From Escherichia coli (lineage in GTDB: Bacteria > Pseudomonadota > Gammaproteobacteria > Enterobacterales > Enterobacteriaceae): a stretch of DNA of 64,000 bases. A program made the translations under genes and the position numbers. Positions 2,962 through 64,000 of this stretch are shown here, piece by piece. Within the stretch, counting starts at the first letter, position 1, and each line of letters starts with the position of its first letter. Below the pieces are notes generated by a model. The model saw only the letters and a program-made list of their open reading frames with translations, was not told the DNA's origin and did not search any database. The DNA lies in NCBI RefSeq assembly GCF_044647545.1, contig NZ_CP172818.1, one strand, 5' to 3'.

Positions 2962-3744
2962 TTAGGAACTTATCTCTCCATCCTGACCCGATGGCGCACT
3001 GAACTCAACCCTTTCATTTTCAGGAAGCAGACCCCGCCAGCCAAATTGTGATAACGCCTGCATCCAGGTGTCGTCCAGGCCCGCGTGAATAGTCAGCGGC
3101 TCGCCAGTAAAAGGATGCGTCAATGACAACTGACTGGCATGCAGCATTAACCGCTGAAGGCCAAAATGTTCAGCACCGCTGCGATTCTGGCGTAAATCAC
3201 CATGTTTGCTGTCGCCAATAATCGGGTGGCGCAAATGGGCAAGATGGCGACGGAGCTGGTGCTTACGTCCGGTTTTCGGCTCCAGTTCCACCAGGCCGTA
3301 GCGCGTGGTCGGGTAACGTCCGGTCGCTACCGGCATTTCTACGGTCGCCAGACCGCGATAATGCGTCACTGCTGGCTGCGGGCCTTTATCTTCGCGGGCA
3401 AATTTATCAGCGATTTTGTCCAGTTCTTCCACCAGTGGATAATCCAGCACCGCTTCTTCCATCAACCAGCCGCGCACAATCGCATGGTAACGTTTCTGGA
3501 TTTGGTGCTGTTCAAACTGTTGTGCCAGCAGCCGTCCGGCCTCGCTGGATAATCCCATCAACAACACACCAGAAGTGGGTCGGTCCAGACGATGAGCAGT
3601 AAACACATGCTGGCCTATCTGGTCACGCACGGTTTGCATGACCACTACTTTCTCGTCGCGATCCAGCCAGCTGCGGTGAACCAGCCAGCCGGAGGGTTTA
3701 TTTACCGCAACCAGCCATTCATCCTGATAGAGTATTTCCAGCAT
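2962..3744 (-). CDS. truC: tRNA pseudouridine(65) synthase
   Basis: 260-aa ORF with RluA-family motif [12 protein letters not shown]; recognised as TruC (YqcB). Confidence 0.9.
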
Positions 3745-4073: not shown

Positions 4074-4116
4074 AAAGCAACCTCAATAAGAAAAACTGCC
4101 GCGAAGGATAGCAGGA

Positions 4117-4485
4117 ATAAAAAAAGGGAGCACTGTATTCACAGTGCTCCCGGTTCGTTTCGCAGCATTCCAGCTACTTTTGTTGCTCCCTGCTCATCCT
4201 TGACAACTTTTCCTCTGGCCTTGCGGCCAATCGTTCATCCTGAACTATTGCTTCCTGCTCACACCACCCCGATGTGATACTTCATCCTGAAGTGTCCCTG
4301 GCCTTCCTGACCCACCGAATCATCCTGACCGGTTCTCATTCTCCATCCTGGAGGTGTCCTTTAACGCGTCCTGCGTCATCCTCTTCGCTTCATCCAGAAG
4401 CCTTTCCCTGAAACACCATCCTGGTGTGTCCTTCAGAAGTGTCATCATCCTGATGTTCACTTCGTTGTCTGACTCCCTGTCGACG
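4117..4485 (-). ncRNA. csrB: CsrB sRNA (CsrA-sequestering RNA)
   Basis: About 369 nt whose reverse complement contains many CAGGAUG / AGGA motifs (seen as repeated 'catcctg' on the + strand) and ends in a GC-rich hairpin plus U-tail (rc of 4119-4151); located between yqcC and syd as in K-12. Confidence 0.9.
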
Positions 4486-22704: not shown

Positions 22705-22910
22705 ACTTCCTGAGCCGGAACGAAAAGTTTTATCGGAATGCGTGTTCTGGTGAACTTTTGGCTTACGGTTGTGATGTTGTGTTGTTGTGTTTGCAATTGG
22801 TCTGCGATTCAGACCATGGTAGCAAAGCTACCTTTTTTCACTTCCTGTACATTTACCCTGTCTGTCCATAGTGATTAATGTAGCACCGCCTAATTGCGGT
22901 GCTTTTTTTT
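22705..22910 (+). ncRNA. gcvB: GcvB sRNA
   Basis: Starts ACTTCCTGAGCCGGAACG, contains the G/U-rich region gttgtgatgttgtgttgttgtgtttgcaat and ends in hairpin caccgcctaattgcggtg plus T8; divergent from gcvA. Confidence 0.9.
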
Positions 22911-27232: not shown

Positions 27233-27309
<77 letters not shown>

Positions 27310-27342
27310 ATTAAAATTTGATGAAGTAAAGCAGTACGGTGA

Positions 27343-27419
<77 letters not shown>

Positions 27420-27452
27420 ATCAAAATTTAATGAAGTAAAGTAGTACGGTGA

Positions 27453-27529
<77 letters not shown>

Positions 27530-30500
27530 ATTATCTGAATACCCAAGTTTTCACAATCGTTTTTTTTATTTAAATCTTTCCTGAATCACAAAGTTTTTTA
27601 TCTCCCTTCCTCGAATAATCAATTACACTAAATTATCCCTTTCTGTATACTCAATCCCCGATATCCTTGTAATGATATTTTCATTACATCTAAATTCCCA
27701 ACGTTCAACTAAACACATCCACCCCAAAACATTTCTTCTTCAATCACCTAATAAACCCCTCATCCACAACTCCCCCCATTGATGATCAACACATCCATCA
27801 TCACAAATATTTATACTAATAAATCTCCACTCAAAAAAACAAAAAACAATGATGAATCGACTCATAAAATATCTTCAATTATACAAATGAATCCACTTTT
27901 CACAACTAATCTTTTTTCAAAACTAAAACTCAACATCAAAACAATAACCTTCCCATTTTTCCAATATCGTACCAACACAATACGTTTACCTTTAACCCAC
28001 CATCACTCACCCATACCATTTTCATCCATGATACACCGATATTTTCATCCCGAAATAATCCAATGATAAATTCCCAACCATTTGAATTAATCCCAACCAT
28101 TATTACAATAATACTATTCCTCCACGAAATCAATATTTCTATCCCCTCCCGAATCTCGATATTATTTTCACACCAACACAATAACTTCCCCTATAACAAT
28201 CTTCCCAACCCAAATAATCTCTAATCATATTCTATTTAACAATCCCACATTATTCTTAATAATAAATTAAAATTATTCTCTCTACAACCCAAAACACTCT
28301 AAAACACTACCAAACATTTTTATACACACTCACTTCAAAAACCACCCCAAAAATACTTACTGTATTTATATTTTAAATTATGAATTTCTTTAACCATCAC
28401 CCCTGATGATAAACCGAAACACACATAAATTTTTTCAATTCAAATCAACCCACCCATCACCAACAACCAAACAACATCCACACATATCTAAACTAAATTA
28501 TCCCCTCACTTTACGATTTCAACAATAAATCACAACTTACCAACATATATACTAAAAAATCAAATAATTACCCATTTTTTTCAACACATTCCCAATTTCC
28601 CTCTCACACTTTTGAAATAAAATAACAACATCTCTTCCCACATCCAATCCTGTACCCTCCTACCTAACAAAAAACGAATCCTACTCAAAATCCGATTTTC
28701 CAATAAACCGACTTACCAACACCAATAAAAACAACTTTTCCCTACAAATTTATACTTTAATTAAAACGAATCAAAATATCAATAACTCTCTACTTAATTC
28801 TTACATAAAATTTTAATAATATATCTTATTCATTTTTATTCTCCCTGATTAATATTTTTAATTACACTCACAAACCGTAACCCCATATATAATTTTTCTC
28901 ACCCACCATTCAAGAATACCCTCCCCCTCCGTTCCATAACATCCCCCCATAACCATTTCCTTCATGAATTAACACTTAAAATTCATCAAAAGATAACCAA
29001 TACAAACAATCTACCAAAAAAACAACATCACTCCTACATCAATTCAATATTTTATTCAATACTAATTGAATTAACAATATTCTTTAATGATTTACATCCC
29101 AATCTAACAATAAACAATTATATTCATACTATGGATTTACAAAACTATACGATATCTTCTAACTTATGATTAAAATTACTCATTAAATCATAAGATCTTA
29201 TCAAATTAAATTCATATCATTATACTACTACTTTTTCTTTTTTTATTTTAACCGATGTAACTACTCATTAAAAACAAAATCACTATGATTTCATCTAACA
29301 TAACAAATTATCCTTAACCACATTTTATATTCTTCTTCCACCAACTTCCTCGTTATGAGATTACATAATAACACCATCTCTTTTATCTTAAACAAATCCC
29401 ATTATACTACCCCCCTCATTTTTTATAATCAAAACTTCAAATATTCCCTATTTTTTACATCAAAAACATTAAACATTAAAAACAAATATTATCACACGAT
29501 CAATAATCTATTCTTTTCAATAATACATCACATCTATATTATCCATTCATTTTATCTTTTATATTTTATAAACCATTTACTACCATTCAATATTCACATT
29601 CAAACAGTACCTAAAATCTTTCCAAGTTTTCTTAATCCCTACACACTTCTTATCAAATCCATATCTAAATAAAATGTAATACATCTTTTACACCAAATCT
29701 CCCCAAAATCCCATTTACAATATTTCCTTCAAACAGTATTAAAAACATCCATCACATATCCATTATTATCCATATCCACCAACATGACTTTATACCGATA
29801 ATATTTATATTTTATCAATTTAATATAATTCCCCACTCTTTTTATTCTCCTCAATCAACCCATATCGATTTTAAACTAAAGATACCAATTATCCAGATTT
29901 AATATTCTCTTTACCACAATCCTTAACATCTCTCTCTTCACTCTATTTATCAACGTATATCCCTATACTATCCTCATACTTCACTACAATACTCTTCACC
30001 ACTCATCAGTTAAATTTAAAATACAACAACACAAAGTAATAAATAAAAAATACCACTTCGACACACACCTATTCAACTTTCTTCCACCAAACCCAAACTA
30101 ATAAATTGAATCAACCCATAAATCCCATCTTCACCCCATAACAAACACGAATCCATTCATAAATCATAAACAAACACATACTACAAATAAAAAAAATCCA
30201 ACTCCTACCCCCAATAATGATTAACACCCCAAATAACAATCTTTATACTTTTCTTTTACATACATCGATACACCACCCACCACCAACATACTAATCATCA
30301 TTTCTTTCCATTTTCCCCCAAACCACAATACCATTCTCTACACCCATAAAATCATCCATAATACTCTCCCCCAATCACACCTAAACCGACGTAAACAAAA
30401 ATCACCAGATTTTAACCAAAAAACTCACTCCAACTCATAAAAAATAACCGAACAACCGAATATATCATCCAATGACATGAAAATTAAAAACCCAATAAAA

Positions 30501-31641
30501 GAATGATCAACCAAACCATCATCACAATCATTAATAACACAACCTATAAAAACTAATATCTAACTAAATTAACGTCTTTTTAACACCATAATAACCCACA
30601 ACAATTCCTCTAAACCTTATTTAACTGATCCCAAATATTTATCGACATTTACACACCAATAATCTCTTTTAAATAAAATTCTCCCAGACACCCATAAAAC
30701 AATAAAGAAAAACATATTTATCCTCTTTTTTTTAATAACCAAGAATTTACCAAACAAACATAATAACAAACAAACAAACCAAAACAATAAACAATATTTT
30801 TATTATGAAACCAAAATAATTAATCCATATCATCATCTAAACATCCACCTACATCACACATACAACAACAAGAAATAAACCTCATCTAAAAAAAATCCAC
30901 TTTCTTTTATTTCATATAAATTTATATATAAAATTAATACTACGAATAAAATATATTTTCTCTAAATACATATTTAAAACAACAATACTCAATTTATGAA
31001 TTAAAATTCTTTCTCAAAAATCATAATCACAATATTCTTTTTTTTATACATAAAACAAAAAAAATAATCATCATAACTTAAATTAAATAATCTCACTTAT
31101 AAAACCGATAACTTTATTTTTTAATAATAAAAAGCATAACAATGAATTCAATTATTTAAAACAAATAAAATTCATCAAATTAAACTAAATTATAATAACA
31201 CAATATTTACAATTTATCAAAAAAAATTATTATTTTACCAAAAAATAAAACAAAAAACAAAAATTTAATTTTTCAAATACACAAACAACAACAAAACAAC
31301 AAATACATAATAATATAACGGGTGTTTTTTTGTTTCTTGTCTCCCATAAAAGAGCCAGCCATCTCAGACGACATTCCATATTTTTTTTTAACCACCCACC
31401 CAGAAATATAACCTCTCCATTCACACTTACACAATTATTTCATACTTATATCAATACTCCCAAAAAAAACAACACTCAAATAATAATACTCAAACAATAA
31501 CATACAAAATAACAACAAACAAACGAATTTTTAATTAAAAACTTTATTTTCAACGACATTCAAAATCCACATCATCACAAAACATCTAATATTCATAAAT
31601 TTATCTATCAACGAAATATAAATTCATAATAAATAAAAACA
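27530..31641. other. About 4.1-kb non-native, apparently non-coding block with extreme G-depletion on the + strand (A/C/T-rich, AT-rich); origin and function unknown
   Basis: By eye, most 60-nt lines contain 0-3 G. No ORF longer than about 105 codons in any frame, and those present translate to low-complexity peptides. No obvious long direct or inverted repeats, no integrase, no duplication of the tRNA 3' end. Fills the whole gap between metV and the amiC stop, where K-12 has only tens of bp (from memory). Confidence 0.85.
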
Positions 31642-34539: not shown

Positions 34540-36366
34540 TTATTCCCGCGAACTAAACAACGCCGCCAGACCACTGCGCCGCTCGGTGCGCGTGGCAATT
34601 GCCGCACTTAAAATGCGCTCATCGGCATACAGCGACAGACGGCGACGCGCGCGGGTCACTGCGGTGTAAACCAGCTCTCGCGTTACTACCGGCGTGCGTT
34701 GACTCGGTAAAATCAACGCCGCATGGTCGAACTCCGATCCCTGCGATTTATGTACCGTCATCGCCCACGTCGTTTCGTGCTCTGGCAGGCGACTCGGTTG
34801 CACAGACTTAATATTGCCGTCCGGCATCGCAAACCAGACGCGCGTCCCCTGCCCACGATCCAGCGCAATACCGATATCGCCATTAAACAACCCAAGCGCG
34901 CTGTCATTACGGGCAATCATCACCGGTCGGCCTTCGTACCAACGAGAGTGCGGATGACGATGAATTTTGCGCTTCTGTTGCATAAACTGCTCAATTCGCT
35001 CATTCAGTCCAGCCACGCCAAACGGCCCTTCCCGCAGGGCGCACAAAAGCTGGTACTCATTGAACGCCTGAATGATTAAATCCGGCTCGGCACGCGCTTG
35101 CAGCAGATCCAGATAACGTCCGTAACCCGCAAGAGCTTCCTCAAGCATCGCAATATAATCTTCGCCGCTCTGTAAAAGCCGTTTTTCGATATCAGAAAAA
35201 TCCTGCTGAAAAACGGTTTTCACTGCCGTTTTATCACCACGGTTGATCGCCGCAGCTAACTGACCAATGCCAGAATCGCTGCCGAAACGATAGCTTTTTT
35301 GCAACAGGCAGAGACTGTCGCGCAAAGATGCCGCTTCTGTGCCAGTTCCTGCCGGAACGTGAGTTCCCGTCAGGCGGCTTAGCTGCCCGGCACGCTCGGC
35401 GGTAAAGCCGGCATTGGCATAAGCACAAATATCGCCCAGCACAGCCCCAGCCTCAACCGAGGCCAGTTGATCACGATCGCCGAGAAAGATCACTCGCGCA
35501 TGATCGGGCAAGGCGTCTATCAGTCTCGACATCATCGGCAGATCGATCATTGACGCTTCATCTACCACCAGCACATCAAGATGCAGCGGGTTACCGGCAT
35601 GATGGCGTAAACGCTGGCTACCTGGCTGCGCGCCCAGCAATCGGTGCAAAGTACTGGCATCTTCCGGAATGCGTTTCTTTTGTTCATCGGTCAGCGGTAA
35701 CTGGCGCAAAGCCTTGCCGAGAGATTCGGTTAAGCGCGCGGCAGCTTTACCCGTTGGTGCAGCCAGACGGATACGGCAGCGTTCGCCGTCGGCCATTTGA
35801 ATTAACGCTGCCAGCAACTTCGCTACGGTGGTCGTTTTACCGGTGCCAGGGCCGCCGGAAATCACTGAGATCCGCCGCGTCAGCGCCACTGCCGCCGCAA
35901 CTTTTTGCCAGTTAATTTCATCGCTTACTGGAAAAAGTTTGTCCAGGGTTTGCGCCAGTAGTGCTTCATCAACCTCAATGGCATGATTCACTTCGTTGAA
36001 AAAGCGTGCCACTGTGCGCTCGTTACACCACATGCGATTCAAATAAAGACGATCGCCACAGAGGATCATCGGCGTTGGTTCATCTCCCCGGCTGACCGCT
36101 TGTGAAGCCAGCAAGCATTCTTCCCAATTTTGTAGCTCACCGATTTCACTGACACAGGTCGCCAACAGCGGATGCGATGCCTCGTTATTTTCCAGTCGTG
36201 AAAGCGGCAAACAAACGTGTCCCTCTCCGGCATCATGACTTAACAGTGCCGCCGCGAGGGTGACGGCAGGATGTTCATCTCCCGCCACGGTCAGGGCAAA
36301 CTGCACGTCCAGCGGGCGTAGCTGTTTGTGCTCCACAGCTTCCAGTAATTGCTTTTGCAATTTCAT
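34540..36366 (-). CDS. recD: Exodeoxyribonuclease V alpha subunit
   Basis: 608-aa ORF with Walker A motif [10 protein letters not shown]; the start codon overlaps the recB stop (TAATG). Confidence 0.92.
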
Positions 36367-39300
36367 TACGCCTCCTCCAGGGTCATACCGGCAAACATCT
36401 CATCCATCAGGTCAATCAACCCGGCGTTGGGTCGGGTCGCGTAGATCCCTTGTTGCGGATGTTCTTTATCAACGCCACGCAGGAACAGATAAATAACGCC
36501 GCCAAAGTGGCGCTCATAGTCGTAATCAGCAATGCGATGGCGCAGATAACGGTGCAGCGCCAGGGTATAAAGCTGATATTGCAGATCATAGCGGTGCGCC
36601 TGCATTGCCGCTGCCATAGCCTGTTGGGTGTAAGCCGAACTGTCTTCACCCAGCCAGTTGGATTTATAGTCGAGCAGGTAATAACGCCCTTCGTGGCGGA
36701 ACACCAGGTCGATAAAGCCTTTTAACATGCCACGTACCTGCATGAACTCCAGCGGCGGGCAGCCAGCGGATAGCGGGTCAAACTGGCGAATTAGTGCATC
36801 AAGCTGACTGGCGATAAGCGGTTCACTAATCGGCAGGTAAAACTCCATCTCCACCTGTTTATCGCGATCGGAAAGCTGATTCAGGCTAACACCCGTTTCA
36901 TTGAGAGGTGCCTGGAGGACAGCCGTGATCCACTCAGTCAACACCGGTTCCCACTGCGGTTCAAAGCCGCCGAGCTCCAGTTTTTCCTGTACCCAGTTCG
37001 GGTCAACCGGCTGGGTAAAATCGAGGTCTTCAAACAAACTGTGCAAGAATGTCCCCGGTGACGCACCGCGCGGGAACTGATGCGGTGTTAACGTCGGTTC
37101 TTCAACGACGCTGACCACGCCTGCGGCATCAACATCCAACCGTGGCATCAGATCCTGAGCGATACCGTGACCACGCTGCTGCAAACCGGAGTAGCTGGTG
37201 ACACGCCAGTTATCGCCGGGCAATCGTTGTAGCGTCCTCGCATTCAGTTCTGCAGTTAATGCATCATTAACCTGCCAGGGCTGGTTATCACCAGTTTGTG
37301 CCGTTTGCCAGGCAATATCATCATCGCATAACGCTTCAATACAGGTGCGAAGCCCTGCCGCATCTTGCGGTTCCCCTTTTTGCAGCAAACGCCCGAGCGC
37401 ACTTTGGTGGACGTCGGTATCACCTTTTTTATCGCCACGACGGCGCACCAGCGGTGCAACGCCGAGACTGCAATGCCAAACCGAACGCGTCAGCGCCACG
37501 TAAAGCAAACGCAGATCTTCCGCCAGACGTTCGGCCTCCGCGAGGTCGACGCTTTCTGGCGCAGCATTAAGATCCAGAACAGCCTCAAACGAGTGGCGAT
37601 CGTGATAAAACGCCTGATCCTGGACGCGGAAATTGGTGATAAACGGCAGCCAGACCAATGGATATTCCAGCCCTTTCGATTTGTGGATCGTGACAATCTG
37701 CACGAGATGTTTATCACTTTCGAGACGCATTTGTTGGCTGGAGGCATTACTGTCTGGCTCGAGGATATGTTGCGATAACCAGCGTACCAGCGCATGTTCA
37801 CTTTCCAGCTGCGTGCCGGCTTCTTGTAGCAATTCGCTGATATGCAAGATATCGGTAAGACGCCGCTCACCGCCTGCTGTTGCCAGCAAGTTTTCTGCAA
37901 TGTTACGCGCCGACATCAGCGCCCGCAGCATCGGCATAACGCCACGTTTGCGCCAGATTTGCCGATAACCATCGAACTCTTCGACTACCGCATCCCACGC
38001 ATGTTCGTCATTATTCAGCGTTTCAATATCCAGCGCATTCAGCCCCATCATTGACGTTGCCAGCGCACTGCGCAGGGTGTTCTCACGTTCGGGTGTCATC
38101 ACCGCCTGCAACAGCCAAAGCATCTCCTGTGCTTCCAGAGTTTCAAAAACACTGTCGCGGTTCGAAAGGTAAACGGAAGGGATTTCCAGCAGCGTTAAGG
38201 CATCGCGCACCTGAGCGGCCTCCTGGCGGCTGCGCACCAGCACACTGATGTCCGAAGCACGCACCGGACGCGCGTCGTCGCCGTTCATCAGCAACGCTTC
38301 GCCCCGCTGTCCGGCTTGTAGCCAGTCGCGGATTTGCGCAGCACATACCTGCGCCATGGTACTTTGATAGTCGCCAACGCCGCAGCTTTCGCCTTCCATC
38401 AGCCACATTTTCATCGCAGGCTGCGTTTCACCTTTAAACACAAAACGTAACGCCTGATTTTTCCCGGCTGATTTCACTGGAATAAAAGGAATTTCGCGAA
38501 ACATGAACGCGTCATCAGTCTGACTGAAAAGTTTGTTAACGCTGTTCACCATTCCCGGTGCGGAACGCCAGTTGGTGTCTAAGGTGTAGTGGGCGTGAAC
38601 TTCGCTACGCGCCTTCATATAAGTGAAGATATCCGCACCCCGGAATGCATAAATGGCCTGTTTCGGGTCGCCAATCAGCAACAATGCGGTTTCCGGCTGA
38701 TGGTGCCAGATACGGCGAAAAATTCGGTACTGCTGGGGGTCGGTATCCTGAAATTCATCGATCATTGCCACCGGGAATCGCGTACGGATCGCCGCTGCCA
38801 ATACCTCGCCGCTTTCACTACGCAGCGCGGAATCGAGCCGACTTAACATGTCATCAAAACCCAATTCGCCACGGCGGCGTTTTTCACGCGCTACTGTTTC
38901 GCGGATCTCAGCTAATGCGCGAGTGATCACCAGATCGCGGATCGACAATGGTTCTGCAAGCAGTTGATCGATCGCCTCAAACAGTGGATGTCGCGGGGTT
39001 TCCCCCCGGCTTTCGTGCGATCTTCTAAGAAACGCTGAGAGAATTTTTCCAGCGACTCTGGCAACTGATAGCTGTTGGTCTCTTCTTCTGCCCAGGCGCT
39101 GATCTTGTCGATCCATTTAGCCTGATTGCTACGGTTAAACTTGCGTCGATCAATACCAGAAGATTCGATCAGCGCATCCAGTTCACCCACCGCGTCGCGC
39201 CACTGCTGTTTTACCGTATCAATACGCGCCACAATTTGCGCGTGGCGGGAAGCCAGCGTTTCATCATCGGGCGGCGGCGCTTTGATAACCGGCGCTTCGC

Positions 39301-39907
39301 CTTGCAGATAACGATTAATATCGCGCAGTAACGCCTGCGGCCCTTTCCAGGTTTCAAAGACGACCTGGGCAATTTCACGCGGCAGCGGGTAGCAGTGGCG
39401 ACGCCAGAAATCGGCGCAGGCCTGGTAACGTAGCAGAGACTCATCTTCAATCAGCTGCTGCTCAAACAGCATGCCGGATTCAAAGGCATTCAGGTTGAGC
39501 ATGCGCTGGCAAAAACCGTGAATAGTAAAGACTGCCGCTTCATCCATCTGCCGTTCGGCTAACAACAACCACTGCGCGGCTTGCGCTTTATCGTCGATCT
39601 CTTCCAGCAGGCGTTTGTACAGTGGATTGTCGGTGGTTTCACGCAGACAGGCGATGCGCAACTCGTGGATATTGCTACGGATACGACCGCGCAATTCTGC
39701 CGTGGCAGCCTCGGTAAAGGTGACCACCAGCAGTTCTTCAACGGTCAGCGGGCGGGGAAAGGCGGCAGAACCGCCTAGTCCAAGTAACAGGCGCAAATAG
39801 AGCGCCGCAATCGTAAAGGTTTTGCCTGTGCCGGCAGAGGCTTCAATCAGGCGCTCGCCCTGTAAGGGCAAGCGCAAAGGATCTAGTGTCTCGGCGACAT
39901 CACTCAT
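36366..39907 (-). pseudogene. recB: Exodeoxyribonuclease V beta subunit RecB, disrupted by a -1 frameshift (or a homopolymer sequencing error)
   Basis: Two overlapping same-strand ORFs, 38927-39916 (329 aa, RecB N-terminus with Walker A ASAGTGKTFT) and 36366-39116 (916 aa, rest of RecB). The frames switch at a run of 6 C at 39000-39005 (+ strand); 7 would give ...RTKAGGETPRHPLFEAIDQLL... in one frame. Total span is 3542 bp against 3543 bp expected for 1180 aa plus stop. Confidence 0.85.
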
Positions 39908-42788
39908 TCTTTTCACTCATCAGGGGCATTGTTTGCTGCAACGCGCTGACGTTCTCCCACACTTTCCAGCCTTCAGGATGCACATATTCGGCTTTCCCGT
40001 TCTGGCTGCCGGAAATCTGCGACAGAATAGCCATACCTTGCGGCTCGACCACCGCCTGATGGAAGAAATCAGCAAGTTTTTGCGGCGTCAGCAGTTTTAT
40101 CTGGGCCACGATTTTATCACGCGAATCGAAGCGCATATTGCCGCGATCGAAATCTTTACTTAACTTCGATGCTTCTTCGCCGAGCGTTTGCGGTGCCTGC
40201 AGCATCTGGGTAATTACCGCCTGCTGGATTTGCGCAAACTCTTCTGGCTTCATCGCCCGCAGTTTCGCTTCTGCGGTCGGGAAAAACGCCTTGTAACGCT
40301 CCCACAAGAATGAAGGCTGTTTATCATTGCTTTGCAACAGGAAGCCCATGCCCCACTGACGCCCCACGCTCATTGGAAACGCAAACACGGCATAGCCCAA
40401 CTGTTCTTCGGTACGCAACTGATTGTAGAACCACGGCTGTACGATCTGCCCCAACAGAGAACTATACGCTGAACTGGTGTATTCATCGTAGCCAGTCGGT
40501 ACAAATACCGCTGCCAGTGCGGAGTCGGTGCTGTTACCGGCTTTTTCAAAGATGACGGATTGTTTTTTATCGACCACGACATCTTTGTTACGACACCACT
40601 CCGAACCATCAGCGCCCAACTGTTTTTGCACATCGCGTGCCAGCGTTGTTGCCTGGGCCTCGGTCATGTTGCCGATAACCATAAACTCTGGTCGAGCCCC
40701 TGATTTTAAGGCGTCGCGATAGGCCAGAACTTCTTTCAAAGTAATGGAGGGCAAAATTTTGCGCCGTTCATCTCGCGAGAAGTATGGTACTTGCGAGAGC
40801 ATCTGCGCGGGCATAATCGCCTGCTCGAACGCTTTGCCCTTTTCTGCAGAATCCATCATCTGGTTATACCAGGACTTCGCCTGCTCAAGCTGATCTTCCG
40901 TAGCGGTATAGCTAAAGTACCCCTCGAGCAATGCCTGGAACAGCTGCGGCAGGCGCTGGGTGTAACCATTGGCATTAACCATAAGGCCGTTGTTAGCATT
41001 GGTGGAAAAACTTATGCCACCAACCGACGCCTGGTTGCTTAACTGATCAAGCGCCAGCCCTGCGAGATAATCATTGAGCGCAAACATCACCTGATTGCGG
41101 GCGCTATCCATGGCTTTTGGATTACGCAAAATCAGGCTGACATCAGCTTTGGGTTCGCTGGAAAAATAACGGCTTGGCGCATACACCACACGCAGATTCG
41201 ACTCATCAACAATCAGCTCTGGATGGTCATATTTCTTCTCTGACTTAATCAGCGAGAAATCGTCAGGAATATAGGGGTTAAGCTCTGGCAAAGAGAGCGC
41301 AATGTCGGCGGCTTTTTTCTGCCAGTCAGCGAAAGTTTGTGCGCTAATTTTATCGACCTGATACGGCGCATCGACAAAGTAAGCCGTTTTGTTGTGCGGC
41401 TCTTTCGGGCTGATATACCAGATACGCGCATTCTGCGGCGTCATCATCGCCAGGCGTTCTTTTACTGCTTTAGCGTCGTACCGATCGGCAATATTGACTG
41501 CATCCAGCGTATGCTCAACAGGAACGCGAATCATGGTATCTGCCAGCCATTCGACGTAATCCATATCACGGGTGATTGACGGATAACGGAAGTCGATATC
41601 CAGCACATTCGCCAGTTCATCGAAGTATTGTTTATCAATCCCTTTTTCGCGTAACAGATTGAGGTAGCTAAAAATGGCCGCCACAACCTGATCGCGATTC
41701 GCCAGACCTTTATCGGTTAAAGACGCAGAGATCGCTAATACGCCGCTGTTGCCGTTGACGATAGGATCGGAATTGGCGCTAATACCCTCAACTAATCCCT
41801 GCTTTTGCAGCCAGTCAGAAAGTGTACCTGGGCTGCGATTACCAATCAGATAGGTAATCAATTCATCCGTTTTACTACGGAACTTCGCTGAATTGTTATC
41901 GATGCGAAACTCAACGCGCAGAACTTTACGCGGCAACGCCGGGACGTAATGAATGATAATGCCCTTTTGCGCGTCGGTGACTACCGGCACGGTGATTTCC
42001 GGTTTTTTGCTCTCTTTGTTCGGCACGCGACCAAAGGTGTCCGCCGCCATTTTCGCCAACTCCGGCAACGGTTTATTGCTGTAAATAACCGCCTTCATCA
42101 GATTGGCGGAATAGTACTTCTCGTGGAAATCTTTCAGCGCCTGCTGTACCGGATTACCTGGTTTGTCGCTTAAAGTTTCGAGGTTACCACCAGAAAACTT
42201 TGAACCGGGGTGTGCCGGGTTAATGGTTTCTGCGCTGACCTGTGCCATGCGCATCCCGTCACGCGTACGCGCCATGGTTAATTCGGCATTCACTGCATTA
42301 CGTTCACGTTCGGCGTATTTCTTGTCGAGCAAGGGTTCTGCAATAGCATCGGCCAGGCGGTCTACCGCACCGGGTAAGGCATCGTTCTCAACTTCCAGAT
42401 AGAAAGCCGTGCGATACGGTGCCGTGCTGGCATTGTGACTGCCACCGTGCATTTTGAGATATTCGGCCAGACTGTCAGCCTGCGGGTACTTTTTCGACCC
42501 CATCAGACTCATGTGTTCAAGGTAATGCGCCAGCCCCTGATACGCCTCGGGATCTTCCAGCGACCCAACGGGCACCACCAGCGCCGAGAGCGATTTAACC
42601 GCCTGCGGATCAGAAACCAGCAAGACCACCATACCGTTATCCAGACGTATAGCCTGATACTGGCGGTTATCTTTATCACTTTTACGGATGGTTTCCTGAA
42701 TCGGCTGCCATCCCGTTTCTGCCTGACTTAAGGGTGCCCAAAGGGCAACAAACAACAATAATGCTTTGAACCAGATGCTGCGGGGCAT
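39900..42788 (-). CDS. ptrA: Protease III (pitrilysin), periplasmic M16 zinc metalloprotease
   Basis: 962-aa ORF with signal peptide and inverted zinc-binding motif HYLEH; recognised as PtrA; 3' end overlaps the recB start by 8 nt. Confidence 0.92.
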   Translation of the reverse strand: MPRSIWFKALLLFVALWAPLSQAETGWQPIQETIRKSDKDNRQYQAIRLDNGMVVLLVSDPQAVKSLSALVVPVGSLEDPEAYQGLAHYLEHMSLMGSKKYPQADSLAEYLKMHGGSHNASTAPYRTAFYLEVENDALPGAVDRLADAIAEPLLDKKYAERERNAVNAELTMARTRDGMRMAQVSAETINPAHPGSKFSGGNLETLSDKPGNPVQQALKDFHEKYYSANLMKAVIYSNKPLPELAKMAADTFGRVPNKESKKPEITVPVVTDAQKGIIIHYVPALPRKVLRVEFRIDNNSAKFRSKTDELITYLIGNRSPGTLSDWLQKQGLVEGISANSDPIVNGNSGVLAISASLTDKGLANRDQVVAAIFSYLNLLREKGIDKQYFDELANVLDIDFRYPSITRDMDYVEWLADTMIRVPVEHTLDAVNIADRYDAKAVKERLAMMTPQNARIWYISPKEPHNKTAYFVDAPYQVDKISAQTFADWQKKAADIALSLPELNPYIPDDFSLIKSEKKYDHPELIVDESNLRVVYAPSRYFSSEPKADVSLILRNPKAMDSARNQVMFALNDYLAGLALDQLSNQASVGGISFSTNANNGLMVNANGYTQRLPQLFQALLEGYFSYTATEDQLEQAKSWYNQMMDSAEKGKAFEQAIMPAQMLSQVPYFSRDERRKILPSITLKEVLAYRDALKSGARPEFMVIGNMTEAQATTLARDVQKQLGADGSEWCRNKDVVVDKKQSVIFEKAGNSTDSALAAVFVPTGYDEYTSSAYSSLLGQIVQPWFYNQLRTEEQLGYAVFAFPMSVGRQWGMGFLLQSNDKQPSFLWERYKAFFPTAEAKLRAMKPEEFAQIQQAVITQMLQAPQTLGEEASKLSKDFDRGNMRFDSRDKIVAQIKLLTPQKLADFFHQAVVEPQGMAILSQISGSQNGKAEYVHPEGWKVWENVSALQQTMPLMSEKNE

Positions 42789-60006: not shown

Positions 60007-60094
60007 AAAAAAAACCTGCGCATCCGCGCAGGTTGGTGCAAGAGACAGGGTACGAAGAGCGTACCGAATAATCTCACCAATCAATACCTCTGGG
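60007..60094 (-). ncRNA. omrA: OmrA sRNA
   Basis: Reverse complement reads CCCAGAGGTATTGATTGGTGAGATTATTCGGTACGCTCTTCGTACCCTGTCTCTTGCACCAACCTGCGCGGATGCGCAGG + U8 (88 nt), recognised as OmrA. Confidence 0.9.
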
Positions 60095-60209: not shown

Positions 60210-60291
60210 AAAAAAAACCTGCGCATCTGCGCAGGCTGGTGTAATTCATGTGCTCAACCCGAAGTTGACTTCACCTATCAATACCTCTGGG
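60210..60291 (-). ncRNA. omrB: OmrB sRNA
   Basis: Reverse complement reads CCCAGAGGTATTGATAGGTGAAGTCAACTTCGGGTTGAGCACATGAATTACACCAGCCTGCGCAGATGCGCAGG + U-tail; shares 5' and 3' ends with OmrA. Confidence 0.9.
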
Positions 60292-60504: not shown

Positions 60505-61536
60505 ATGGCGACCATAAAGGATGTAGCCCGACTGGCAGGCGTTTCAGTCGCCACCGTTTCACGCGTCATTAATAATTCACCCAAAGCCAGCGAAGCTTCC
60601 CGACTGGCTGTGCATAGTGCAATGGAGTCTCTTAGCTATCACCCGAACGCCAACGCCCGTGCGCTGGCGCAGCAGACCACTGAAACGATCGGTCTGGTCG
60701 TTGGTGATGTTTCCGATCCGTTTTTCGGTGCAATGGTGAAAGCGGTCGAACAGGTGGCTTATCACACTGGTAATTTTTTATTGATTGGCAACGGTTACCA
60801 CAACGAACAAAAAGAGCGTCAGGCCATTGAGCAACTGATCCGCCATCGCTGTGCTGCGCTGGTTGTCCATGCCAAAATGATCCCGGATGCTGATTTAGCC
60901 TCATTAATGAAACAAATGCCCGGTATGGTGCTGATCAACCGTATCCTGCCTGGCTTTGAAAACCGCTGTATTGCTCTGGACGATCGTTACGGTGCCTGGC
61001 TGGCAACGCGTCATTTAATTCAGCAAGGTCATACCCGCATTGGTTATCTGTGCTCTAACCACTCTATTTCTGACGCCGAAGATCGTCTGCAAGGGTATTA
61101 CGATGCCCTTGCTGAAAGTGGTATTCCGGCCAATGACCGGCTGGTGACATTTGGCGAACCAGACGAAAGCGGGGGCGAACAGGCAATGACCGAGCTTTTG
61201 GGACGAGGCAGAAATTTCACTGCGGTAGCCTGTTATAACGATTCAATGGCGGCGGGCGCGATGGGCGTGCTCAATGATAATGGTATTGATGTACCGGGTG
61301 AGATTTCGTTAATTGGCTTTGATGATGTGCTGGTGTCGCGCTATGTGCGTCCGCGTCTGACCACCGTGCGTTACCCAATCGTGACGATGGCGACCCAGGC
61401 TGCCGAACTGGCTTTGGCGCTGGCGGATAATCGCCCTCTCCCGGAAATCACTAATGTCTTTAGTCCGACGCTGGTACGTCGCCATTCAGTGTCAACTCCG
61501 TCGCTGGAGGCAAGTCATCATGCAACCAGCGACTAA
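60505..61536 (+). CDS. galR: Galactose repressor (LacI family)
   Basis: 343-aa ORF with N-terminal HTH MATIKDVARLAGVSVATVSRVIN; recognised as GalR. Confidence 0.92.
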   Translation: MATIKDVARLAGVSVATVSRVINNSPKASEASRLAVHSAMESLSYHPNANARALAQQTTETIGLVVGDVSDPFFGAMVKAVEQVAYHTGNFLLIGNGYHNEQKERQAIEQLIRHRCAALVVHAKMIPDADLASLMKQMPGMVLINRILPGFENRCIALDDRYGAWLATRHLIQQGHTRIGYLCSNHSISDAEDRLQGYYDALAESGIPANDRLVTFGEPDESGGEQAMTELLGRGRNFTAVACYNDSMAAGAMGVLNDNGIDVPGEISLIGFDDVLVSRYVRPRLTTVRYPIVTMATQAAELALALADNRPLPEITNVFSPTLVRRHSVSTPSLEASHHATSD

Positions 61537-61542
61537 CCGCAG

Positions 61543-62805
61543 TTAAAGCAATTCCAGCGCCAGTAATTCTTCAATGGTCTGGCGACGGCGAATCAACCGC
61601 GCCTGACCATTATCAAACAGAACTTCTGGTAACAGCGGACGACTGTTGTAGTTGGATGACATTGATGCGCCATATGCCCCCGTATCATGCAGTACCAGAT
61701 AATCACCCGCCTTCACTTCCGGCAAGGCGCGGGTTTCGACATTTCCCCCTTCCTGCTGGGTAAAGACATCGCCCGATTCACATAACGGCCCGGCGACGAC
61801 GGTTTCCACCGTTGGCGCGTGTTCCAGAGAACGACCATCAGCTGCCAGGGCACTGATATGGTGGTAACTACCGTACATTGCCGGGCGCATCAGATCGTTG
61901 AACCCGGCATCAACCAGCACAAAGTGGCGGCTACCCATTTGTTTGACGCTTCGCACTTGAGTAATTAATACGCCAGCCTGCGCTACCAGAAAGCGACCCG
62001 GTTCAATTTCCAGTTTCACAGGATGGCCCAAATGGCGGGCGATTTGCTCACGCGCGGCATTCCATAGACCATAATAATGTTCAGTATCAACCGCCTCTTC
62101 ACCCTGTTGATAAGGAATAGAAAGCCCACCGCCCGCAGAAATAGCCTGTAAATCCTGACCGAATTCGAGGACCTGACGCACCATAGCACCACATACCTGT
62201 TCCAGATGGGCATAATCGACGCCAGAACCAATGTGCATGTGAATGCCGACCAGCTGTAGATGATGACGTTGTATCACGTCCAGTGCGGCGGGCAGATCGG
62301 TGTACCAGATACCGTGCTTGCTGTTTTCGCCACCGGTATTGGTTTTTTGGCTATGCCCGTGACCAAACCCCGGATTAACACGCAGCCATACCCGATGCCC
62401 TGGCGAAACCTGACCCAGTTGGTCGAGCATATCAACAGAACCCGCATTCACCGGAATTTGCAATTCACTGACGCGTTCAAGCGTCGCCTGATCGATAACA
62501 TCTGCCGTAAAAACAATATCATCGGGGTGCGTTTGCGGATTGTAACCCGCCGCCAGTGCACGCTCTATTTCGCCTAACGAGACGGAATCCACTTTTACGC
62601 CCTGCTCACGCATTAAGCGCAAAATATGAATATTGGAACAGGCTTTCTGTGCAAAGCGCACCACATCAAACTGTTTCAGCGCTGCAATCTGCCGACGAAT
62701 AATTTGCGCATCGTAGACCCACACCGGGCAGCCAAATTCTGCGGGCAAACGCAGCAGATTTTCGGCGGTGAGATCGGTATCAGTGCTGAACAGTGAATGT
62801 GGCAT
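61543..62805 (-). CDS. lysA: Diaminopimelate decarboxylase
   Basis: 420-aa ORF recognised as LysA. Confidence 0.92.
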   Translation of the reverse strand: MPHSLFSTDTDLTAENLLRLPAEFGCPVWVYDAQIIRRQIAALKQFDVVRFAQKACSNIHILRLMREQGVKVDSVSLGEIERALAAGYNPQTHPDDIVFTADVIDQATLERVSELQIPVNAGSVDMLDQLGQVSPGHRVWLRVNPGFGHGHSQKTNTGGENSKHGIWYTDLPAALDVIQRHHLQLVGIHMHIGSGVDYAHLEQVCGAMVRQVLEFGQDLQAISAGGGLSIPYQQGEEAVDTEHYYGLWNAAREQIARHLGHPVKLEIEPGRFLVAQAGVLITQVRSVKQMGSRHFVLVDAGFNDLMRPAMYGSYHHISALAADGRSLEHAPTVETVVAGPLCESGDVFTQQEGGNVETRALPEVKAGDYLVLHDTGAYGASMSSNYNSRPLLPEVLFDNGQARLIRRRQTIEELLALELL

Positions 62806-62926: not shown

Positions 62927-63862
62927 ATGGCCGCCGTTAACTTACGTCATATTGAAATTTTTCATGCGGTAATGACCGCCGGAAGTCTGACTGAGGCGGC
63001 ACACCTGCTACACACCTCACAGCCAACCGTCAGCCGCGAACTGGCGCGCTTTGAGAAGGTGATCGGGCTGAAATTGTTTGAGCGCATACGTGGACGATTA
63101 CATCCTACCGTGCAAGGACTGCGTCTGTTTGAAGAAGTGCAACGATCCTGGTACGGACTGGATCGCATTGTCAGTGCCGCAGAAAGTCTGCGCGAGTTTC
63201 GCCAGGGAGAACTGTCTATTGCCTGCCTGCCGGTCTTTTCGCAATCTTTTTTACCGCAGCTCCTGCAACCCTTTCTGGCACGTTATCCCGATGTCAGCTT
63301 AAACATCGTGCCCCAGGAATCACCGCTACTTGAAGAGTGGCTCTCGGCCCAGCGTCATGATTTAGGACTCACTGAGACACTCCATACGCCTGCGGGAACA
63401 GAACGTACCGAATTACTCTCTTTAGATGAAGTGTGTGTGTTACCTCCGGGCCATCCGCTGGCGGTAAAAAAGGTATTAACGCCGGATGATTTTCACGGTG
63501 AAAACTACATCAGCCTTTCCCGTACTGACAGCTATCGCCAGTTGCTGGATCAATTGTTTACTGAGAATCAGGTTAAACGACGCATGATCGTAGAAACCCA
63601 CAGCGCCGCGTCAGTCTGCGCAATGGTACGGGCGGGGGTAGGCGTTTCGGTAGTTAACCCACTCACCGCACTGGATTATGCGGCAAGCGGTTTAGTGGTG
63701 CGGCGGTTCAGCATTGCGGTTCCATTCACCGTCAGCCTGATCCGCCCCCTGCACCGCCCGTCATCAGCGCTGGTGCAGGCGTTTAGTGAGCATTTACAAG
63801 CGGGATTACCGAAACTGGTCACTTCTCTTGACGCTATTTTGTCGTCAGCTACGACAGCATAA
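62927..63862 (+). CDS. lysR: LysR transcriptional activator of lysA
   Basis: 311-aa ORF with LysR-type HTH, divergent from lysA. Confidence 0.92.
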
Positions 63863-64000
63863 AAGCGACAGCATCCTCGGCATGGATCGCCGCGGTATCA
63901 AACACAGGCAGAACACTGCGCTCTTCTGGCACCAGTAAACCAATTTCTGTGCAGCCAAAAATGACGCCCTGTGCGCCCTGTTCTGCAAGGCGAGCAATCA
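63849..64000 (-). CDS. ygeA: Asp/Glu racemase-family protein, C-terminal part (gene continues beyond the right edge of the window)
   Basis: Reverse-strand translation from the window edge gives ...[49 protein letters not shown]-stop, with a conserved GCTE active-site-like motif; stop at 63849-63851 overlaps the lysR 3' end. Confidence 0.7.

Follow-up and report, generated by a model that had tools for sequence, protein, structure and literature searches.

We have analysed the junction between lysR and ygeA in a window of 64,000 nucleotides of Escherichia coli DNA (RefSeq assembly GCF_044647545.1, contig NZ_CP172818.1), the window being the whole stretch examined. The two genes face each other tail to tail at the right end of the window, with lysR complete on the + strand and ygeA entering on the - strand with its 3' part (Table 1). 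The lysR product is the activator of the lysine biosynthesis gene lysA, and YgeA is a broad-spectrum amino-acid racemase. On the other side of lysR, galR and lysA form another convergent pair.

Table 1. Features of the lysR-ygeA junction and of the remainder of the window
Feature	Position in the window	Strand	Basis
lysR CDS, 311-aa LysR-type regulator, stop included	62927-63862	+	ORF list, Pfam, RefSeq annotation of an identical strain
ygeA 3' part with the stop and the 50 codons before it (amino-acid racemase); continues past the window end	63849-64000	-	Open-frame translation; full ORF in locus L001; PDB; Pfam
14-bp tail-to-tail CDS overlap, + strand CTACGACAGCATAA	63849-63862	.	Same overlap annotated in FDAARGOS_497, MC1061, 98E11 and MG1655
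lysR stop codon TAA	63860-63862	+	Sequence and ORF list
ygeA stop codon TAG (CTA on the + strand)	63849-63851	-	Sequence and translation
ygeA codons TTT-ATG (Phe227-Met228); the complement CATAAA is the source of the lysR TAA	63858-63863	-	Aligned junctions
Direct repeat of the 9-mer CGACAGCAT, period 14, slippage-prone	63852-63874 (copies 63852-63860 and 63866-63874)	.	Sequence
Inverted repeat TGTCGT-cagct-ACGACA, 6-bp stem, spanning the ygeA stop	63840-63856	.	Sequence, folding
galR	60505-61536	+	ORF list; stop 61534-61536
lysA	61543-62805	-	ORF list; stop 61543-61545
CsrB	4116-4475	-	Rfam
GcvB	22705-22910	+	Rfam
Three tRNA genes (tRNA-Met in the FDAARGOS_497 annotation)	27233-27526	+	Rfam
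OmrA/OmrB, two copies upstream of galR	60007-60094, 60210-60291	-	Rfam

The lysR reading frame closes with ACG ACA GCA TAA. On the - strand, translation of 63849-63998 was uninterrupted and was closed by the TAG at 63851-63849; the YgeA protein was absent from the translations of the other two frames of that strand. Both genes end at their first in-frame stop, and each stop codon lies inside the opposite coding sequence, which defines a tail-to-tail overlapping pair with zero intergenic DNA. The last four codons and the stop of lysR are opposed by the F-M-L-S-stop region of ygeA (its last four sense codons plus the stop), and the overlapped LysR codons extend from the end of codon 308 through codon 311. 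The two reading frames by themselves dictate the overlap, so chance is hardly the question. The first-pass annotation of this DNA had put the lysR stop at 63860-63862, the ygeA stop at 63849-63851 on the opposite strand and the convergent overlap at 14 bp. The sequence and the ORF list confirmed the first position and the translation of the open frame the second, while the overlap was exact to the base and was the same in RefSeq for a strain that is identical here and for MG1655. It had also named another ygeA frame or stop as the observation that would contradict the overlap, and a search for one by translation, full ORF, PDB and Pfam was negative.

Both ORFs are genuine coding genes, as supported by their Pfam domains, the YgeA structures, their conservation in syntenic Enterobacteriaceae and RefSeq. 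LysR has the N-terminal HTH_1 domain (PF00126, residues 6-64, E 1.5e-17) and the C-terminal LysR_substrate domain (PF03466, residues 92-293, E 9.8e-44) of a LysR-type regulator. With the latter ending at residue 293 of 311, the overlapped lysR codons lie outside recognised domains. The full ygeA ORF, read in locus L001, encodes 230 aa and belongs to the Asp/Glu racemase family (Asp_Glu_race, PF01177, residues 7-223, E 2.7e-42). YgeA residues 1-230 were near-identical to the PDB chains 5HQT, 5ELL and 5ELM, deposited as aspartate/glutamate racemase, and this included the C-terminal AFMLS.

The segment 62800-64000 was 100% identical to that of FDAARGOS_497, among others, where PGAP places lysR at 348344-349279 (+) and ygeA at 349266-349958 (-). 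In K-12 MG1655 the genes occupy 2979021-2979956 (+; lysR, b2839) and 2979943-2980635 (-; ygeA, b2840), which again corresponds to a 14-bp overlap, and PGAP annotates the same overlap in MC1061, 98E11, 08-00022 and 99RCEF. The overlap is thus already known: the standard E. coli annotation includes it, and lysR-ygeA has been catalogued for overlapping transcripts. That it could be an annotation artefact, one of the genes truly ending earlier and the coding sequences not overlapping, is next to inconceivable, given the unambiguous frames with their first in-frame stops, the match of YgeA 1-230 to solved structures up to the last residue and the PGAP overlap in all strains inspected. Nothing in E. 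coli spoke for such an artefact; the closest observation is the lysR stop of E. albertii and strain SCPM-O-B-8794, which comes 18 nt sooner.

The lysR/ygeA locus was found in 5423 of the 5426 complete E. coli genomes. A 71-bp junction segment (63815-63885) was 100% identical in 4330 of these 5423, K-12 included (in MG1655 the locus is the same, only the strain differing), and 95-99% identical in the remainder. The differences in the junction variants that we inspected fell outside the 14 bp, with the exception of strain SCU-106 (locus L086). The latter carries, at the CGACAGCAT direct repeat, one extra 14-bp unit in tandem (CGACAGCATAAAAG), presumably originating from slippage. As a result of this duplication the ygeA CDS becomes 711 nt long, the YgeA C-terminus is altered and the annotated overlap grows to 18 bp.

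We have then compared the junction across species. A YgeA scan with one genome per species returned 80 loci, among which a convergent lysR adjoined ygeA in Enterobacteriaceae only. Both stops were located at each Enterobacteriaceae locus with a convergent lysR, and 25 syntenic junctions were aligned. The 14-bp overlap was present in E. coli, a Citrobacter, Kluyvera, two Pluralibacter, an Enterobacter MAG and Superficieibacter. Overlaps of 4 bp were seen at seven loci (Pseudescherichia and Phytobacter among them), of 6 bp in two Enterobacter, of 29 bp in Citrobacter youngae and C. werkmanii, and of 23, 27 and 38 bp at one locus each. Between genera it is either the lysR stop or the ygeA stop that has shifted; in the longer overlaps the usual ygeA stop is gone and YgeA has a C-terminal extension. 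The remaining junctions showed gaps of 2 bp (one MAG), 4 nt (E. albertii and Escherichia strain SCPM-O-B-8794), 62 and 110 bp (Pseudocitrobacter, with a REP-like palindromic insert), about 0.5 kb (one MAG, L013) and about 1.4 kb (L020, L022 and L023, comprising two Cedecea and Enterobacter sp. Ag1). At the two Pseudocitrobacter loci (L017 and L019), the REP-like palindrome (GCCGGATGGCGGC...TGTAGGCCCGGTAAGCGAAGCGCCACCGGGC) lies between the ygeA stop at 3193 and the lysR stop at about 3256 and 3304, respectively.

In E. albertii and SCPM-O-B-8794, lysR has a TAG where E. coli has TCG (Ser306), at about 3180-3200 of L005 and 2784-2804 of L006. The lysR stop is thereby 18 nt earlier than in E. coli, and LysR ends in ...AIL, six residues shorter. 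Since Citrobacter and Kluyvera read through to the TAA used by E. coli, the 14-bp state looks ancestral for the group and the E. albertii stop derived, as far as the aligned junctions can tell.

The alignment also indicated why the overlap measures 14 bp. The C-terminal sequence of YgeA was Phe-Met-Leu in the aligned junctions (n = 25), with Phe-Ile-Leu in one. The + strand read AGCATAAA in the window and in 24 of the 25 aligned Enterobacteriaceae junctions, and AGTATAAA, with the TAA retained, in the other one. In the lysR frame AGCATAAA corresponds to GCA TAA. With ATG after it, each of the two Phe codons generates a stop in that frame, TTT ATG giving TAA and TTC ATG giving TGA. Because the Phe-Met codons (TTY ATG) necessarily form an antisense stop, lysR cannot enter ygeA deeper than 14 nt; with no earlier lysR stop in phase and with ygeA ending in FMLS-stop, lysR ends exactly 14 nt in.

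The LysR residues beyond ...AIL differed in sequence and length between genera (SSATTA, DRPTTA, NPIKKA, QSQVKA and others). As the LysR tail is variable and the YgeA end is conserved, the overlapped sequence is constrained by YgeA, with the LysR tail free-riding and apparently dispensable. The lack of the last six LysR residues in E. albertii provides natural evidence for this dispensability. The junction is a clean worked example of a conserved C-terminal dipeptide that imposes an antisense stop and thereby sets a fixed limit on how long a convergent overlap can be. In practical terms, editing or deleting either 3' end, as in knock-outs or in C-terminal tagging of LysR or YgeA, alters the other gene.

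Convergent overlaps of this kind are familiar in E. coli, where 663 overlapping adjacent pairs have been counted, 75 of them convergent (Huvet and Stumpf 2014, PMC4161906). The lysR-ygeA pair resembles these tail-to-tail pairs in its short convergent CDS overlap produced by stop-codon movement and shows no categorical difference from them; what it adds is that the conserved Phe-Met codons of the partner set the limit of the overlap. The matching annotated stretch contained seven CDS-CDS convergent junctions, namely six with spacers of 104, 43, 50, 81, 31 and 6 bp, plus the lysR/ygeA overlap.

We have also searched the junction for transcription termination signals. A consensus scan over 2.1 kb (L001 2900-5000) revealed no intrinsic terminator downstream of the lysR stop or of the ygeA stop. 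The sole strong terminator-like hairpin in the scan was located between araE and ygeA, just beyond the window end (L001 4838-4864, -), with a 12-bp stem, eight GC pairs and a T-run. On the - strand of MG1655, Adams et al. (PMC7815308) mapped a 3' end to 2980766, which falls just within the araE stop, 131 nt upstream of ygeA. This hairpin and the 3' end near the araE stop suggest that most ygeA transcription probably starts at its own promoter or results from read-through.

The inverted repeat at 63840-63856 was considered as a functional element, either a terminator or, together with a longer fold of the ygeA-sense RNA, a stabiliser of the 3' end after Rho termination and exonuclease trimming. 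The ygeA-sense RNA did fold better than its shuffles (z -2.8 for 51 nt and -3.6 for 101 nt), and the repeat sits exactly at the ygeA stop. However, the lysR-sense fold was unremarkable (z -1.3 and -0.2 for the same lengths), the terminator scan did not call the hairpin, and a 6-bp stem arises easily by chance. On both strands the hairpin is preceded by T's and followed by A's, opposite to the arrangement needed in a terminator, and a U-tract after it is absent on either strand. In the alignment, E. albertii and Citrobacter have another sequence in place of the left arm, so that this arm is not conserved even in the former, and the corresponding 101-nt stretches from nine other species showed no conserved fold (z -1.17 to +2.32). 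A functional role of this hairpin is therefore very improbable, and the structure was set aside as incidental, its fold being conserved neither in the nine species nor in the alignment. A bidirectional intrinsic terminator, which likewise serves two convergent genes that need termination in a very small space, was also rejected: the scan was empty at and after both stops, and the lysR/ygeA junction differs from such terminators in having no GC-rich hairpin flanked by A-/U-tracts. Instead, termination appears to be Rho-dependent and to occur inside the opposite gene.

The first-pass annotation had further proposed that the two mRNAs overlap at their 3' ends, a claim supported by the CDS overlap, by the lack of an intrinsic terminator and by published RNA-seq and Rho data. 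Since each mRNA must hold its own stop codon, the transcripts are complementary over at least 14 nt. With ExcludonFinder, lysR-ygeA and also galR-lysA were listed among 165 convergent excludons of MG1655 (PMC12288877, Table 1), the criterion being transcripts that overlap in at least 50% of 58 MG1655 RNA-seq samples. In addition, Adams et al. 2021 (PMC7815308, supplementary file 2) reported a Rho-termination region that peaks at 2980090 on the + strand and that they class as antisense to ygeA. The read counts were 73 upstream and 17 downstream without BCM and 146 upstream and 129 downstream with BCM (Rho score 3.79, p 1.8e-6), for regions that are coarse (800-nt comparison windows) and that could in principle reflect other + strand transcription. 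In MG1655 coordinates the peak lies 134 nt past the lysR stop, at about 63996 of the window. Over the first 150 nt past its stop, the lysR-sense RNA is richer in C than in G (C/G 1.3-1.4), in keeping with Rho loading.

The supplements of Adams et al. contained no entry for RNA antisense to lysR or for a Rho region in the ygeA-sense RNA, and their Term-seq tables gave no discrete 3' ends for lysR or ygeA. The SMRT-Cappable-seq supplements had no lysR or ygeA entries. Altogether, the mRNA 3' overlap is almost certainly much longer than 14 nt, and probably exceeds 100 nt.

The neighbouring galR/lysA junction is similar in being convergent, in having a spacer of 6 bp, in being a listed excludon and in having a Rho region antisense to the downstream gene (MG1655 2978071, +, antisense to lysA; Adams et al., PMC7815308). 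It differs from lysR/ygeA in that the coding sequences do not overlap. The lysA-lysR segment is flanked on both sides by terminator-less convergent junctions.

We consider the lysR-ygeA junction to be, very probably, a genuine and ordinary tail-to-tail overlap of unrelated convergent genes, brought about by tight packing and drifting stops, with no dedicated device. The initial rating of the feature as a minor point of organisation was appropriate, the overlap being real, known and ordinary. With no room for a terminator and none predicted nearby, each RNA polymerase would continue into the opposite gene and would be halted there mainly by Rho, after translation has ended; the resulting mRNAs would be complementary at their 3' ends over at least 14 nt, probably over more than 100 nt. 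As both genes are weakly expressed, we judge the consequences to be small; at most we would expect a degree of transcriptional interference or of trimming by RNase III, of the kind suggested for convergent excludons generally.

The excludon concept has been reviewed (PMC7154746), and a stronger version of it would make lysR and ygeA a functional convergent excludon, their transcription being mutually repressive through polymerase collision and/or cleavage of the duplex by RNase III. The presence of the pair in the E. coli "excludome" of ExcludonFinder (PMC12288877), its abutment or overlap in about 20 Enterobacteriaceae genera, the lack of a terminator between lysR and ygeA, and the Rho-dependent antisense RNA across the 3' part of ygeA all point in this direction. 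Convergent neighbours, a very short (here negative) intergenic distance and the listing itself are what the pair shares with the convergent excludons (PMC12288877). The defining outcome of the latter, however, is mutually exclusive expression or RNase III processing, whereas lysR-ygeA was listed from RNA-seq coverage; in that paper the pair occurs once, in a table, and a functional test of it is not described. Furthermore, the overlap length is unconserved, the overlap being lost in E. albertii, Pseudocitrobacter and Cedecea, and no RNA structure is conserved in the nine other species. We thus regard a functional excludon as unlikely. Just as doubtful is the proposal that the lysR-ygeA abutment has been maintained since the antisense 3' ends couple both genes, tuned by interference, Rho and RNase III; if this were true, the expression of a lysine-pathway regulator and of an amino-acid racemase would be mutually tuned. 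The abutment across many genera could reflect selection for overlap rather than compaction.

Some observations concern the remainder of the window. Positions 39003-64000 were 100% identical to FDAARGOS_497, and the window is not collinear with that genome upstream of about 31.5 kb. A segment of about 4.1 kb (27531-31641), located between the three tRNA-Met genes and amiC, is almost G-free on the + strand, with a GC skew near -0.8, about 110 G in 4000 nt, a GC content of 0.18-0.33 and just three ORFs of at least 80 aa. Alignment with the PTS-sugar island that other strains carry (phosphoglycerate dehydrogenase, KpsF/GutQ isomerase, MalY/PatB, PTS EIIC and PRD protein) was obtained only with about 611 small deletions, most of which remove runs containing G. 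None of the 5426 complete E. coli genomes gave a good match to the segment, the best one covering 74% of the query at 76.6% identity. Rather than a natural locus, the segment appears to be a corrupted copy with G dropout, whether from an artefact of assembly or sequencing or from alteration of the sequence. Finally, recB (36366-39916) is split into two ORFs (36366-39116 and 38927-39916) by a C homopolymer at about 39002, which has six C's here and seven in FDAARGOS_497; the frameshift is either real or due to a sequencing error in the homopolymer.
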